Shown here in pieces: positions 25,638-30,438 of a DNA stretch of 33,365 bases. The stretch comes from a virus (lineage: Duplodnaviria > Heunggongvirae > Uroviricota > Caudoviricetes). The notes beneath the pieces were generated by a model, which saw only the letters and a program-made list of their open reading frames with translations, made no database searches and was not told where the DNA came from. The DNA lies in IMG/VR virus record IMGVR_UViG_2737471753_000001, positions 1 to 33,365 of that record. One strand, written 5' to 3'. Every line of letters begins with the position of its first letter. Position 1 is the first letter of the stretch. A program made the position numbers and the translations under genes.

Positions 25638-28025
25638 TTAGTTCCGCGAAAATGCCGCTTTCATCCTATTCACAAGATCGCTTGTTTTTTGCTTCGCCGC
25701 CATCACTTGCGACGGCAGCCTCTCCAGCCCCGACGCGGCCCGGTTGCGCGATACCAGCCGCCCGTCCTGCACGGTCATAACAAGATCGCCGCACGCCACT
25801 GACGCACCGGCCATCATCGATCTGACCATTCCGGCGCTGGCATCAATCCCACGTAGCGCCAGCAGTTCACTGATCTGCTGCTCTTTCACGGATAACCCGT
25901 CCCCGTCTTTCCGTTCCGGTGGCCGTTTTTTACGCTTACTGCGCACATCGTCACTAAGCCGCTGCGCCAGTTCTCGCTTTTCCTGCCGGGAAAGCGCATC
26001 AAAATTCACCGTCACGCCCTCAGCTGGTGCAGTCATTTCTGACTGCCCTTTAGCTTCGCTGGCGGCATGTTCAACACCGTCAGCACCTGCCGCGGGATCC
26101 CGCGTACAGTTATTGACAGAACTCCGAGGGGCGGCGCTGCCGCCTGAAAAACCAACGTCAACGGCCACACCGTCAGCGCTCTGGCGCTTCGGCACGATTT
26201 TGTATTGAGTGGTGCGGGTGAAGATCAAAGAGTCATTGCCCGTGATCGGGCAGTAAATACCAGTGATTCGCTGGACGTTATCGCCGTAGGCGTTGCCATT
26301 TTCAGTGATTTCATAGTTCAGACGGATGCGCAGTTTATCGCGCTCAACCAACGGGCCACCCTGGGCTAATACGTAGTTATCCCATTCACCACCGTTAGCA
26401 GCCTGCCGGGCGGTTTCCAGTTCAGGGTGTAACACCAGTTCGCGATCGCCCAAGCGGCGAAGTTCGCGATATACCGTGACCGGCGCACCGCCGATCTGCT
26501 GAAACTGGCGAATAGCCCAGCGCGATGCCCACGCGCTAACACGGAGTGACATTTCTTTCAGGTCTTCCCCGGTTTCGTCGTCCTTCTCACCATCCAGCGC
26601 GAAGCCGTCGATATTCTTCGAAATGTATTTCGCTATGTAGCCGGTTGCGCTGCCGTGGGCATCGTCGATCGGCACAACCTGAAAGCGGTTTTCCTGCGCT
26701 CCCGGTTCGTTGCCGTCTTCTTTCAGGGCATATTTACGGAAGATTTCGCGCGCCTGCTCGACGCATTCCGGGCGCATAAAAAGAAGTAAATGCCAGTGTG
26801 GCGTTGCATCGTGGTGCGGTTCGACCACGCGGAAACCAAAGACGCGGATCCCTTTTCTCTTCCACGCTGCGCGGGTTCTCGCCCAGACTTTGCAAAGATA
26901 TTGCTGCGTCTCGCGCGGCGACGCGCCACAGTATTTATTATTGCGGCGCCCGTTATGCTGCATGGAGTGGTAACGGGAAGGTGCTGTCAGCGTGTAGAAG
27001 TCACCGGCCAGCCCTTCCAGCTTCGCCAGATCTTCAAATCCGCGCATTCTCGTCATGAGTTCGCGGCGACGGTTGGCCGGATTGGCAACACTACCGGCGA
27101 CTTTATCGATCAGTGAAATGCGCTCGCCCGTGTCCTGGTCTTCCAGCTCCATAGCCTTAAGGTATTCACGGTTAGCCTTTTTCTGGGCCAGCCATTCCGT
27201 AAGGCACGGGGCGCTACTGTATGGGGAAGATTTTTTCTGGACGTATCCCGCCGCGATCATCAAGTGCTCACGCCATCGGGCATGGATACGGCGCAGGCGG
27301 TTTAACCACCATTGCGGTGACTCAAGACGGAGAACCGCGCGTAACGCGTCCTCCGCTTCAAGTTCTTCATTGCAATACGCTGTCCAACCTGGGATCGGCG
27401 TTTTTAGATGCACCGCCAGCGACGCAATACGGCCATAGCCAGAAAGCGCCGCGAACTCAGGATCGCCGGTGCGCGCCAACTGGTAATCGGACTCGCGTAT
27501 AAACTCGCTCGTAAAGATATCGGCAAGCGTATAAGCCAGTCTTTTTAACTCTTTTTTCCCTGCCCAAAGCATACGGAAAAGCTGATCGCGGATTGGCAGC
27601 AGAATGCCAGGCATCACAGTGTCAGGCTGGTAAACACTGTTCACGCTATCAATACGTGTTAATACGTGGCGCTCAAAGGTATTAACCAGCCAGTGATCTG
27701 CCGCTTTGCGGTCTTTCGCGTCCAGTGCATCCAGCTTCGCGGCAAAGTGGCGGCGGATATACTGCGGAAGGGAAGCCAGACGGCGACGCAGCAGCTTGCT
27801 GCGCTCCGACTTTTCGTCCTCCGCTACCAGTTCACTGAACGCAATATGCTTGCGGGTGCCGTCCGGCGTGAGATAGTCGAAACCATCCAGCCCCGTCGCT
27901 ACATCAACGCCAATCGGCTGGTATGGTTTGTTCCCGCCATAAGCGTAAGGGGTAGCATTATCAGTGCTACCCGAATACGGTGGAGGTGGAGAAGGGGCGC
28001 GACGGCCACGGGTTGCCGTAGTCAT
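25638..28025 (-). CDS. A: rolling-circle replication initiator (gpA family)
   Basis: 795-aa ORF with ...HWHLLLF... and ...GYIAKYISK... motifs typical of P2 A-type nicking initiators; start overlaps the methyltransferase stop. Confidence 0.9.
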   Translation of the reverse strand: MTTATRGRRAPSPPPPYSGSTDNATPYAYGGNKPYQPIGVDVATGLDGFDYLTPDGTRKHIAFSELVAEDEKSERSKLLRRRLASLPQYIRRHFAAKLDALDAKDRKAADHWLVNTFERHVLTRIDSVNSVYQPDTVMPGILLPIRDQLFRMLWAGKKELKRLAYTLADIFTSEFIRESDYQLARTGDPEFAALSGYGRIASLAVHLKTPIPGWTAYCNEELEAEDALRAVLRLESPQWWLNRLRRIHARWREHLMIAAGYVQKKSSPYSSAPCLTEWLAQKKANREYLKAMELEDQDTGERISLIDKVAGSVANPANRRRELMTRMRGFEDLAKLEGLAGDFYTLTAPSRYHSMQHNGRRNNKYCGASPRETQQYLCKVWARTRAAWKRKGIRVFGFRVVEPHHDATPHWHLLLFMRPECVEQAREIFRKYALKEDGNEPGAQENRFQVVPIDDAHGSATGYIAKYISKNIDGFALDGEKDDETGEDLKEMSLRVSAWASRWAIRQFQQIGGAPVTVYRELRRLGDRELVLHPELETARQAANGGEWDNYVLAQGGPLVERDKLRIRLNYEITENGNAYGDNVQRITGIYCPITGNDSLIFTRTTQYKIVPKRQSADGVAVDVGFSGGSAAPRSSVNNCTRDPAAGADGVEHAASEAKGQSEMTAPAEGVTVNFDALSRQEKRELAQRLSDDVRSKRKKRPPERKDGDGLSVKEQQISELLALRGIDASAGMVRSMMAGASVACGDLVMTVQDGRLVSRNRAASGLERLPSQVMAAKQKTSDLVNRMKAAFSRN

Positions 28026-28936
28026 TGCGCGATCTCCATGTAGGCTTTTAAGAAAGTAGCGGCTGCATAGATATTTACGGCGTTTCCGCTGGCGCGTAGT
28101 TTTCCCACTCTGGAGGGAACCCCATCAACCAGAGGCTTAAGGCCGGGTTTAACTGGCCTCCACTTTCCATCTCTGCAAAAGAGCCAGTCAGCAGATCCCC
28201 AGAATCCGTTAACCGGGCCGGGCCTGCTATCTGCGCTGTCACATCCAGCGTATCCGTTGACAGCTTCCCGTGCCGCATCCTTCCCCCCTGATACCCGCCC
28301 TTTCCATCCCTCGCCGTAGGGGTGGGCCAGCCCGCAAGACAAGCAAAGTCCTGTAAGTTCGACTGCCGACCAGCCAGCTTCTTGGCGATCACCTTCTCGG
28401 CATCCTGATAAGCGTTCTTCGTATTGCTCGCGGTTGGAGTCGGCCAGCCAGTAAGTACGCTCCCGGATGTGCGGCGCACCGACGCCCGCAGACGGAAACG
28501 CCGACGCCCCGAAGGCATAGCCCAAACTTTCCATGTCTGTTTGTACAAGGTCGATCCAGACTTCTGCATCTTTGCTTGAAGACTGTTCGCCAAATATAAC
28601 GACAGGGCGTTGCTGGCCTGCAAGCCAATGAACGGCGGGCCATAGGTGCCGCTCATCATCAAATTGTTTTCCTTCGCCTGCCTGGCTGAAAGGTTGGCAT
28701 GGGCAACTTGCTGTCCATACTGGGCGGTCATCCGGCCATCCTGCAACGCGCAAAGCCCGGGGCCAGCCTCCAAAACCTGCAAACAGGTGGACTTGAGAGA
28801 ATCCTTTAATGTCATTTGGGGTTACATCCTCAACGGAACGAGTATCAACAACGCCGGAAGCGATAAGCCCGGCATCAATGAGGTTGCGCAGGTATTGCGC
28901 GGCGAAGGGGTCGATTTCGTTGTAGTAGGCGGTCAC
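28022..28936 (-). CDS. DNA (cytosine-5) methyltransferase, possibly frame-disrupted
   Basis: 304-aa frame carries C5-MTase motif I (FAGFGGW), motif IV (SCPCQPFSQAG), a motif VIII-like HIRERTYW and a C-terminal GNAV; a +1 frame (track ORF 28075..28815) is open across most of the gene and carries a duplicated GWPTPTA motif. Confidence 0.65.
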   Translation of the reverse strand: MTAYYNEIDPFAAQYLRNLIDAGLIASGVVDTRSVEDVTPNDIKGFSQVHLFAGFGGWPRALRVAGWPDDRPVWTASCPCQPFSQAGEGKQFDDERHLWPAVHWLAGQQRPVVIFGEQSSSKDAEVWIDLVQTDMESLGYAFGASAFPSAGVGAPHIRERTYWLADSNREQYEERLSGCREGDRQEAGWSAVELTGLCLSCGLAHPYGEGWKGRVSGGKDAAREAVNGYAGCDSADSRPGPVNGFWGSADWLFCRDGKWRPVKPGLKPLVDGVPSRVGKLRASGNAVNIYAAATFLKAYMEIAQ

Positions 28937-29253
28937 TGCTGCCCCTCCGCCTTTCGGCTACACCGATCGATTACTTGGTACTGAATTTCTAAACCCAGCT
29001 TTTCAGCAAGCGCGTGCTCTGCCTTAGCTCCCGCAGACTGCTGCCAGCCATCCAGCAAGAAGATCCCGTCAGCACAACGCAACATGGCGAAGCAAATATC
29101 CATGTATTCCGCCTGCTCTAATCCGTCCGGCAAAATCGCCGGATTAAGGGCAACGTTTCCGCGTCGCACTACGTGCCCAGCTGCACGGTTAAAAGCCTGC
29201 CGATTGAATCCAGGCAAACCGCTCATCGGGCCAGCGATATAGATTTTTGCCAT
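28933..29253 (-). CDS. DUF4406-like (nucleoside 2-deoxyribosyltransferase-like fold) protein
   Basis: 106-aa ORF MAKIYIAGPMSGLPGFN...; coupled (overlapping start/stop) to the Dam and C5-MTase genes. Confidence 0.5.
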   Translation of the reverse strand: MAKIYIAGPMSGLPGFNRQAFNRAAGHVVRRGNVALNPAILPDGLEQAEYMDICFAMLRCADGIFLLDGWQQSAGAKAEHALAEKLGLEIQYQVIDRCSRKAEGQQ

Positions 29254-30224
29254 TAAAAAGCCTCCAGATCGCCAAACGTGCCCGCCGCAACCATCGCGTT
29301 GTAAGTCGCATCACCCATCACGGCGCCACAATCAGGGCAACCGCCGCCGTAACGCCCGCAGCAGTCGCAGACAGGCAGCACGCCGATCACTTCTTTGGCC
29401 TTCTGTCGGTTGTTTTTGTCAGTGCTGACGGAACGTTGCACGCTGATTTTGTGCATCTTGAAGGGCTGATAAATCGCGCGGGTGGCTTCGGTGTCGCTGT
29501 TGGAAATGACGACCTTCACGCCATGCTTACGGTTAACTTCCAGCAGTGCCTGGACTAACTGGCGGTGGTTGTCTTCCGTGAATGGTTCGGTGTGGTATTG
29601 GGTAAAATCGGCTGTTTTGCTTTCAGGCAGGTAAGGCGGATCGCAGTAAACGAGAACATCGCCACCCGTGACGACCTGTAGAGAACGCTGGAACGGCGCG
29701 CACAGAAATATTGCCTTTGTATCGTTGGCCTTTTCGGCAAACAGGCGGATTTCATTTTCAGGAAAGTAGACGCTCTTATACTTGCCAAACGGCACGTTAA
29801 AGCCAGTCTTCCGGCTGTATCGGCATAAGCCGTTATAACCGTGGCGATTCAGATACAGGAATTGAGCAGCGCGCATAATGCACGCCATTTCAGCGCCATA
29901 ACGCAACCCACCGCTTTTGACCGTACCCACCTGCTTATTGAACGCGGCGCGGACTTCGTTGTATCCCTGCGGGCTGTTCTTACTGTTGAACAGTTCACGG
30001 GCCGCATCGATCACTAAGTCCGGGTAACGGGTGACTTCCCGATACAGGTTAATAAGATCCGGGTTGATATCAGCCAGCACATAGCGGCGGTATTCAGTCG
30101 CCAGAAATACCGATGCGCCGCCTACGAACGGTTCGATCAGGCAGTCGGCTTTAGGAAGATGCGGCAGCAGGTCAGGGAGGACACGGGTTTTTCCCCCTGC
30201 CCATTTGATGAACGGGCGGATCAT
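29253..30224 (-). CDS. dam: DNA adenine methyltransferase (Dam-like, N6A) with Cys-rich C-terminal extension
   Basis: Start placed at MIRPFIKWAGGK (SD GGAG upstream); DPPY motif (...VYCDPPYLPE...); C-terminal tail ...PVCDCCGRYGGGCPDCG... resembles a zinc ribbon. Confidence 0.8.
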   Translation of the reverse strand: MIRPFIKWAGGKTRVLPDLLPHLPKADCLIEPFVGGASVFLATEYRRYVLADINPDLINLYREVTRYPDLVIDAARELFNSKNSPQGYNEVRAAFNKQVGTVKSGGLRYGAEMACIMRAAQFLYLNRHGYNGLCRYSRKTGFNVPFGKYKSVYFPENEIRLFAEKANDTKAIFLCAPFQRSLQVVTGGDVLVYCDPPYLPESKTADFTQYHTEPFTEDNHRQLVQALLEVNRKHGVKVVISNSDTEATRAIYQPFKMHKISVQRSVSTDKNNRQKAKEVIGVLPVCDCCGRYGGGCPDCGAVMGDATYNAMVAAGTFGDLEAF

Positions 30225-30225
30225 T

Positions 30226-30438
30226 TTACAGGACTCCGTAATGGGAAGCTGGAATAGAAGGGCGCTGCAATTCTTCAATGCAGTGCTGGCGCAGATTGCT
30301 TATAAAATTGGTTGCTACAGACCCACTGGCAGAAAGGGTTAACTCACCATCACGGCGGGTTTTAATGGTTAACCCTTCATTTTCGATAGCAGGTAAAAGA
30401 ACATGCAAAATGAAACTATATTGTTCACGTCTGGTCAT
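30226..30438 (-). CDS. hypothetical protein
   Basis: 70-aa ORF (MTRREQYSFILHVLLPAIENEGL...) with SD GGAGGAAG; ends 2 nt before the Dam start. Confidence 0.45.
   Translation of the reverse strand: MTRREQYSFILHVLLPAIENEGLTIKTRRDGELTLSASGSVATNFISNLRQHCIEELQRPSIPASHYGVL

Follow-up and report, generated by a model that had tools for sequence, protein, structure and literature searches.

A C5-cytosine methyltransferase gene of a P2-like prophage is, we hold with high confidence, a case of genuine dual coding under selection, and its two products probably make up a two-polypeptide 5-methylcytosine (m5C) methyltransferase whose smaller subunit is encoded inside the gene of the larger one; the likeness to M.EcoHK31I, which is arranged in this way too, is one of architecture. 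The gene lies on the minus strand of a 33,365-nt stretch of viral DNA (the window), which comprises positions 1 to 33,365 of the IMG/VR record IMGVR_UViG_2737471753_000001. Two of the open reading frames (ORFs) listed for the window are concerned: frame A (alpha; 28022..28936) encodes 304 amino acids (aa) from a GTG start, and frame B (beta; 28075..28815), shifted by +1 and wholly nested in A, encodes 246 aa and takes up 741 of the 915 nt of A (81%), B position 3 falling on A position 1 in the codon register. Both ORFs are conserved across the family, purifying selection acts on them in a frame-specific manner, and the start of beta is conserved as well.

The original prediction, made from the sequence of the window, had described C5-methyltransferase (C5-MTase) motifs in the 304-aa translation (FAGFGGW, SCPCQPFS and HIRERTYW) and a +1 frame that stays open for 246 codons and encodes GWPTPTA twice. 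Both observations held: the motifs are present in a protein that matches Pfam family PF00145 with 42.4 bits, and the ORF list and a pattern search recovered the +1 frame and its repeat, the pattern GGCTGGCCNACNCCNACNGCGAG occurring exactly twice in the window versus 0 expected (100 shuffles). The two modules (28427..28449 and 28310..28332, minus strand; B residues 123-129 and 162-168) are 117 nt apart, not about 130 nt as had been estimated, and, as had been claimed, they differ only at third positions of B, at four sites that are silent in B (GWPTPTA in both) and change the amino acids of A (LADSNRE versus LAHPYGE). The codon that follows each module, AGC or AGG, also differs at B position 3, yet changes the residue (S/R).

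The same wobble pattern is reproduced in related sequences. Codon-position variability, calculated as the mean pairwise differences over 53 distinct loci, was 0.39, 0.28-0.29 and 0.58-0.60 at B positions 1, 2 and 3 of the "LAGWPTPTA.D" segment, which is the pattern of frame B, and the first GWPTPTA module of the window lies in DNA with this B-only signature. At the N-terminus of A (residues 1-78), on the other hand, a single-gene pattern was found, with 0.5-0.65 at the third position and about 0.15-0.25 at the first and second, and residues 283-300 of A again follow the ordinary pattern, the third position being far above the first and second in variability. Across A residues 121-150, which lie over the B segment GSTLYKLTWK, A third positions have values of 0.17-0.40, at or below those of first positions (in the B segment GSTLYKQTWK, 0.17 versus 0.31 at the A first position), and across A residues 241-282 the third positions are as conserved as the first (0.17-0.40). 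In the middle of A the amino-acid difference reaches 0.74-0.85 and the A first position is the most variable. Past the WPTP modules the segments alternate between A-type "NGFW.DADWLFCRDGKW", B-type "QLNPALSLWLMGFPPEW" and A-type "RVGRLRAYGNAI", the B-type segment, which resembles motif IX, having 0.20, 0.16 and 0.36 at B positions 1, 2 and 3; directly past the B stop, A third positions are back to 0.56-0.63. To judge from these codon-position patterns, the gene shows mosaic dual coding, in which A alone is constrained at the N-terminus and past the B stop, B alone in the WPTP region, and both between.

Codon shuffling gave a result in keeping with this signature. When the codons of A were shuffled synonymously (A protein and codon usage kept; 1000 shuffles per locus, 8 divergent loci), the observed length of the +1 ORF was reached in 0-0.5% of cases, so that purifying selection on the +1 frame, as originally proposed, is borne out by both the codon-position signature and the shuffles. 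Conversely, shuffles synonymous in B keep the middle of A open in about 15% of cases on average, whereas it was open in about 75 of the 80 loci observed, and A is therefore taken to be translated through its middle.

Searching each frame separately, as had been suggested at the outset, gave full-length colinear homologues for A and a family of 3147 homologues for B as well. All 8000 of the 8000 scored candidates in the frame A search were significant, and among the matches listed the alignment was colinear over 93-100% of the query unless the match was itself truncated; the exact 304-aa protein was found on 73 contigs. Frame B retrieved 10,422 representatives of 50%-identity clusters (E<=1e-3), and its homologues are 200-480 aa long and nearly all free of Pfam domains, PF00145 being found in 1 of 149, a hybrid. 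A search with frame A brought up 80 genome loci, which belong to Gamma-, Beta- and Alphaproteobacteria, to Desulfovibrio and to a range of metagenome-assembled genomes (MAGs); frame B was open in all 80, which means that the homologues of B are not independent genes. The open +1 stretch in these loci runs from about 60-115 nt past the A start to about 50 nt before the A stop. Stops in the +1 frame number 0-10 per intact gene and fall near the two ends (59/59), leaving up to 213-411 codons uninterrupted, whereas about 15 stops in the +2 frame of the same 59 genes leave at most about 70 codons uninterrupted.

The +1 pair is also present in six phages (epsilon15, K1H, RcAqua, BcepC6B, LASTA and JC01), where its annotation varies. 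In epsilon15, RcAqua, BcepC6B and LASTA the +1 ORF lies under annotated methylases; phage K1H (locus L089, 840-1664) has both products annotated, as "C-specific methylase ORF29" and, for frame B, "Mte8-like protein ORF28"; and in Cronobacter phage JC01 (locus L094, 906-1989) the coding sequence called "DNA methyltransferase" is frame B, the true frame A being unannotated. The genes called on Logan contigs L005-L007 (2886-3884) list frame B only, PGAP records list frame A only, and the two PHROGs families matched by frame B, phrog_1008 and phrog_31772, bear the name "DNA methyltransferase". Database annotation of the gene pair is thus inconsistent, and the nested arrangement is mostly missed. 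The literature on "Mte8", on motif IX in an alternative reading frame and on overlapping phage methyltransferase genes yielded no description of the nested family.

The start region of beta (28813..28831, minus strand) carries the sequence GAGG at 28831-28828, a one-codon ORF (ATG-TAA) at 28827-28822 and the B start codon ATG at 28815-28813, all written within A codons E36 D37 V38 ... N41 D42. A B-frame ATG is found within A codons 28-44 in 52 of the 53 loci. Residue D37 is encoded by GAT, the codon that makes the ATG, in 46 of 49 Asp codons (94%) versus 42% overall; R33-S34 is encoded as AGG-AGY or CGG-AGC in 25 of 53 loci, which places AGGAG or GGAG 8 nt before the ATG, and AGG is used at R33 in 18 of 53 loci (34%) versus 8.8% of Arg codons overall. 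B has its own conserved initiation site, built by biased codon choice in the conserved DERSIEDV..D motif of A. A second Shine-Dalgarno sequence with TTG or ATG is found at A codons 85-96 in 33 of 53 loci, and a shorter isoform of B is possible. Further B-frame ATGs of the window lie at 28731 and 28659/28656, and a TTG at 28662. The one-codon ORF of the window (28822-28827, minus strand) is in frame B, six bases ahead of the B start, and coincides with the site of the B start ATG in most other clades (-45 relative to LSARQA). The enterobacterial clade seems to have shifted the start of B downstream by four codons. The original prediction had offered two explanations of the locus, a frameshifted gene and two proteins encoded in overlapping frames, and the latter is strongly supported by both frames being open across the family, by frame-specific selection and by the conserved start of B.

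Frame A has the features of a C5-MTase large domain. It matches phrog_363 end to end, while the PF00145 match (cut-off 22 bits) covers residues 74-172 only. Motif I, FAGFGGW (28763..28783, minus strand; residues 52-58), which binds S-adenosylmethionine (AdoMet), aligns with FAGLGG of M.HhaI; motif IV, SCPCQPFS (28685..28708, minus strand; residues 77-84), with the catalytic cysteine, aligns with PCQAFS, and P79, C80, Q81, F83 and S84 are invariant in 47 sequences; motif VI, ENV-like, reads FGEQ; and motif VIII, HIRERTYW (28448..28471, minus strand; residues 156-163), aligns with QKRERIYM. Motif X, absent from the original prediction, is found near the C-terminus as SGNAVN, its core GNAV (28076..28087, minus strand; residues 284-287) being followed by a C-terminal helix that is encoded past the B stop; G284 and N285 are invariant in the 47 relatives, and the alignment to FGNSV of M.HhaI is weak. 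Since motif X lies on the C-terminus of A, a simple A-then-B fusion is ruled out. A profile of frame A matched M.HhaI residues 72-178 with an E value of 1e-17 (9e-14 by hhalign).

In the AlphaFold2 model of A the N-terminal domain (residues 1-168), mostly with a predicted local distance difference test score (pLDDT) of 80-94, and the C-terminal helix (residues 280-303) are confident; over residues 274-303 the helix has a pLDDT of 64-89, and residues 170-275 fall to 23-49. The model resembles M.HhaI, M.HaeIII, DNMT2 and DNMT1 over about 170 columns, corresponding to the large catalytic domain only. The middle of A (28112..28428, minus strand; residues about 170-275) is open, poorly conserved and predicted to be disordered, and both the alignments and the model suggest that it is a linker, its DNA being constrained mainly by frame B. 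Between motifs VIII and X, where a single-chain enzyme has its small domain (target-recognition domain plus motif IX), no such folded unit was found in frame A. Because residues 170-275 have a pLDDT below 50, are poorly conserved and lack A-frame selection, and because a motif-IX-like sequence is found in frame B, A alone is not a canonical single-chain C5-MTase; as modelled, it holds motifs I, IV-VIII and X and is without a folded small domain and without motif IX.

The N-terminus of A (28823-28936, minus strand; residues 1-38), reading AYYNEIDPFAAQYLRNL...GVVD, resembles C5-MTase motifs II-III ("VYSNEWDKYAQEVYEMNF..GD" in M.HhaI) and is predicted to form a strand-helix-strand unit preceding the motif I strand, and 35 residues are absent between motifs I and IV relative to M.HhaI (region of A residues 48-84). 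The methyltransferase family may, to go by this order of motifs, be permuted, with the motif I unit moved behind motif III.

The conserved parts of B comprise a helix (SS.SA.LQ.SL.SRL), a hairpin (GSTLYKLTWK...PSGR..LRAS), 1-5 "LAGWPTP.A.D" modules and a C-terminal segment, PARLTASG.MLTGS..GGQLNP..SRWLMG.P.EW. The window has two GWPTPTA modules, the number in relatives ranging from 1 to 5, and its B translation includes the peptides STLYK, QTWK and LSTDTLDVTAQIAGPAR. The segment GSTLYKQTWK (28528..28557, minus strand; B residues 87-96), whose DNA reads "WIDLVQTDMESL" in A, is constrained in both frames, and G87, S88, W95 and K96 are nearly invariant in B. Towards the C-terminus, the B segment LNPALSLWLMGFPPEW (28105..28152, minus strand; B residues 222-237) resembles C5-MTase motif IX. 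The sole hhalign match of the B profile to M.HhaI, with E 0.33 against a hand-entered sequence, pairs QLNPALSLWLMGFPPEWE with KLHPRECARVMGYPDSYK (residues 273-290, motif IX), and it is the beta segment QLNPALSLWLMGFPPEW that makes this match, with E 0.33 or 0.1 when taken alone; when B 199-237 was joined to A 279-304, the resulting chimera gave a colinear alignment with HhaI 274-312, spanning motifs IX-X (E 0.01). The matches of B and of the chimera, weak as they are, fall exactly where an alpha/beta enzyme would have them. A Pfam search with conceptual A-B-A and B-A chimeras did not extend the PF00145 match past motif VIII and was uninformative.

From these observations we propose that the P2-like prophage makes a DNA (cytosine-5) methyltransferase of two polypeptides from this locus, one stretch of DNA being read in two frames. 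Alpha (304 aa) would contribute the catalytic, AdoMet-binding large domain, i.e., motif I, motifs IV-VIII and, via an unstructured linker, the motif X helix. Beta (246 aa), whose translation we infer, would have a start ATG of its own, in the +1 frame and about 120 nt into the alpha gene, pass through an unconstrained leader of about 55 residues and then contribute a segment of helix and hairpin (SS.SA.LQ..L / GSTLYKLTWK..PSGR..LRAS), "LAGWPTPTA.D" modules in varying number, which probably recognise the target, and a helix resembling motif IX (QLNPxxSxWLMGxPxEW). The recognition modules are probably in the nested subunit, and not in alpha, because of the selection pattern and the predicted disorder of the middle of alpha. 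The two chains would associate into an active enzyme, as experiments have demonstrated for M.EcoHK31I, and this orphan enzyme would methylate phage or host DNA, most likely in order to evade restriction.

Several points weigh against such an enzyme: (i) the similarity of B to motif IX is short and, at E 0.1-0.33 with a hand-entered HhaI sequence, not significant alone; (ii) frame B has no Pfam, NCBIfam or PDB sequence match, its sequence and its profile giving chance matches only when compared with PDB sequences; (iii) the AlphaFold2 model of B alone is very poor, with a mean pLDDT of 35.7, and too poor for a fold search; (iv) in the window the Shine-Dalgarno sequence GAGG lies 12 nt before the ATG at 28815, a long spacing, with the one-codon ORF between; and (v) the target-recognition domain of M.EcoHK31I, unlike the arrangement proposed here, is placed in alpha by the literature.

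The serious rival starts from the same weaknesses. According to it, frame B is a real overlapping gene whose product is unrelated to methylation (e.g., anti-defence or regulatory), and alpha is a complete enzyme, its middle being the target-recognition domain; a product without a recognised domain that folds poorly alone and has statistically weak similarity to motif IX would be in keeping with this, as would the frequent disorder of overprinted viral proteins and the fact that PGAP and most annotators take A as the complete enzyme. We nevertheless regard it as unlikely, since A and B complement each other and there is a precedent for a nested second chain. The middle of A is poorly conserved, without A-frame selection and predicted to be disordered, so that A appears to lack a folded target-recognition domain and motif IX, whereas the conserved C-terminal segment of B stands exactly at the place of motif IX relative to motif X of A. 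The pair is, moreover, co-conserved in 80/80 loci, and the only characterised gene of this architecture needs both chains (PMC2836561). Conservation of the +1 frame might instead reflect a constraint on DNA or RNA, such as repeated protein-binding sites or RNA structure, rather than translation of B, and the unit GGCTGGCC.AC.CC.AC.GCGAG can be read as a DNA repeat. Across the 53 loci, however, the variability has a three-base periodicity in the register of B, lowest at position 2 and highest at position 3, stops are avoided over 213-411 codons and the ATG and Shine-Dalgarno sequence are conserved; periodicity, stop avoidance and a conserved ATG are signatures of translation, and on these sequence patterns a constraint of this other type is highly improbable.

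Two further explanations would make the two frames parts of one protein. Programmed ribosomal frameshifting from A to B and back to A would give a single canonical enzyme with motifs I-VIII, a target-recognition domain, IX and X, and the order of the pieces, namely A (N-terminus), B (WPTP modules and motif IX) and A (motif X), is indeed colinear with a canonical C5-MTase, while rare natural hybrids of the two frames (P0011, P0278, L060, L071 and L073) also speak in its favour. At least four shifts would, however, be required (A, B, A at "NGFW..CRDGKW", B at "LNP..PEW" and A at "GNAV"), B already runs open for about 80 codons before any junction is reached and starts at a conserved ATG with a Shine-Dalgarno sequence of its own, the middle of A is maintained as an open frame, the hybrids are sporadic and their junctions differ, and no slippery site was seen at the B-to-A junction of the window or in the family consensus there (inspection by eye, not a systematic scan); we therefore consider frameshifting very unlikely. 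One candidate, the heptamer GGGAAAA near the B-to-A junction, was rejected: read by eye, it was judged to be in register with A, so that a -1 slip on it would lead to the third frame and not to B, and it is absent from the family consensus. An accidental frameshift, i.e., a pseudogene or an assembly indel near 28445-28470, would account for recognisable motifs in two frames of this single sequence, and the original prediction had likewise allowed for a frameshifted A-then-B gene with an indel near 28450-28470. This has almost no chance of being right: the 1201-base query is 100% identical in a complete genome, where PGAP calls the gene intact, the exact protein occurs on 73 contigs, colinear full-length homologues of A and full-length B ORFs are the rule across Proteobacteria, and selection keeps both frames open, the middle of A included.

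The hybrids themselves deserve a short description. In P0011, P0278, L060, L071, L073, L080 and L052, indels or stops fuse parts of A to parts of B, or shorten A with B still open; some of the hybrid or broken relatives are MAGs with homopolymer runs, where assembly error is likely, and in L071, which comes from the genome of a Paraburkholderia caffeinilytica isolate, the N-terminal and middle parts of B run into the C-terminal part of A. With their differing junctions, the rare hybrids resemble products of mutation or of faulty assembly. As evidence for single-chain relatives P0011 and P0278 were rejected, being 2 of the 270 frame-B matches scanned (P0001-P0120 and P0241-P0390), and P0011 is found on one 2145-nt contig.

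Returning to the alpha/beta enzyme and its surroundings, positions 27900-29100 of the window (the 1201-base query) are 100% identical to the complete chromosome of E. coli KA0011, in which PGAP gives frame A as an unbroken gene for a "DNA cytosine methyltransferase" (WP_072129282.1) and the gene setting is the early region of a P2-like prophage. On the minus strand, cox, fil and small ORFs are followed by a Dam-like methylase remnant, DUF4406, the methyltransferase gene and the replication endonuclease gene A, in this order. The GTG start of frame A shares GTGA with the DUF4406 stop (28933-28936, minus strand), and its stop shares ATGA with the start of replication endonuclease gpA (28022-28025, minus strand), junctions that would suggest translational coupling along the early operon (DUF4406, alpha and gpA). 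No cognate restriction endonuclease adjoins the methyltransferase gene, its neighbours being DUF4406, the Dam-like methylase remnant and the replication endonuclease, and the methyltransferase is thus an orphan prophage enzyme, without a restriction-modification partner gene beside it. The Dam-like adenine methylase ORF (29253-30278, minus strand; 341 aa, TTG start) is represented in the PGAP annotation by a pseudogene without its C-terminus and then a hypothetical-protein fragment; the single long ORF, whose tail reads ...CDCCGRYGGGCPDCG..., seems to have arisen by a deletion that fused the two in frame. In a 90%-identity protein collection the 304-aa methyltransferase (28025-28936, minus strand) is placed in a 987-member cluster whose representative is a 796-aa replication endonuclease, which looks like a clustering artefact; it might stem from fused gene calls over the ATGA junction and could mislead name transfer.

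The family to which the gene belongs is broad: at 50% identity it falls into more than 10,000 clusters, and its members are carried by phages and prophages of Gamma-, Beta- and Alphaproteobacteria and Desulfovibrio, among them P2-like, epsilon15-like, Kagunavirus, Casjensviridae and other phage types. We suggest tentatively, giving it slightly less than an even chance, that this large phage and prophage family of orphan m5C enzymes consists of obligate alpha/beta enzymes, with the DNA-recognition subunit in the +1 frame and 1-5 WPTP modules in it. Should this be true, few dual-coding regions known from double-stranded DNA phages would match the overlap in length and in breadth of conservation, the M.EcoHK31I architecture would be common and not a curiosity, and specificity would lie in the chain that most annotations leave out. 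Expressing frame A alone in order to determine specificity may fail or mislead. The clean natural mosaic of dual coding over about 740 nt could also serve as a benchmark for detectors of overlapping genes and for the study of shared sequence space.

Among known systems, the closest in architecture is M.EcoHK31I of E. coli HK31 (recognition sequence YGGCCR), an alpha/beta C5-methyltransferase described by Lee, Kam and Shaw in 1995, in which both chains are required and beta is encoded wholly within the alpha gene in another reading frame (PMC2836561, PMC3404938). As in that enzyme, the large chain here has motifs I-VIII and X but not IX, and a nested second chain carries motif IX (motif-IX-like here, on a weak match). 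N-terminal deletions of M.EcoHK31I beta progressively lower association and activity, leaving almost no activity in vitro at 41-42 residues (PMC2836561, with reference to Lee et al. 1995 and Fung et al. 2006). The beta N-terminus of M.EcoHK31I is thus partly dispensable, and the leader of beta here is unconstrained. The two systems also have differences: M.EcoHK31I belongs to a restriction-modification system, whereas the gene described here is an orphan prophage gene with no adjoining nuclease, and beta here has repeated WPTP modules under B-frame selection, while the inter-motif region of alpha looks unconstrained and disordered. The alpha chains are similar in size (reportedly 309 aa in M.EcoHK31I, a figure attributed to a report of 1995, versus 304 aa here), and beta here is longer (246 aa versus a reported 176 aa) and covers 81% of alpha.

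Reviews describe C5-MTases as monomeric and give only M.AquI and M.EcoHK31I as two-polypeptide exceptions (PMC3404938). A nested second subunit, one of these two listed exceptions, is suggested by the present locus and its relatives to be widespread among phage-borne orphan methyltransferases, and the locus would be a new member of a kind that is known but regarded as exceptional, and of which it may represent the bulk. M.AquI of Agmenellum quadruplicatum is likewise a split C5-MTase that needs two polypeptides, the split lying in or around the variable region (PMC3404938), but at the present locus the alpha gene contains that of beta, and motif X remains part of alpha. The single-chain enzymes M.HhaI and M.HaeIII (PF00145) share with frame A motifs I, IV, VI, VIII and X and the predicted fold of the large domain, although in frame A the elements resembling motifs II-III appear N-terminal to motif I. 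Finally, the locus resembles same-strand overprinted genes of viruses in its segregated constraints per frame and in the reduced synonymous variation of the overlap (PMC8227390). Those genes, however, are mostly found in small RNA or single-stranded DNA viruses and encode a de novo, unrelated protein (PMC8227390), whereas the overlap described here extends over 741 nt in double-stranded DNA phages and prophages, and the nested product B looks like a detached piece of the same ancestral enzyme.

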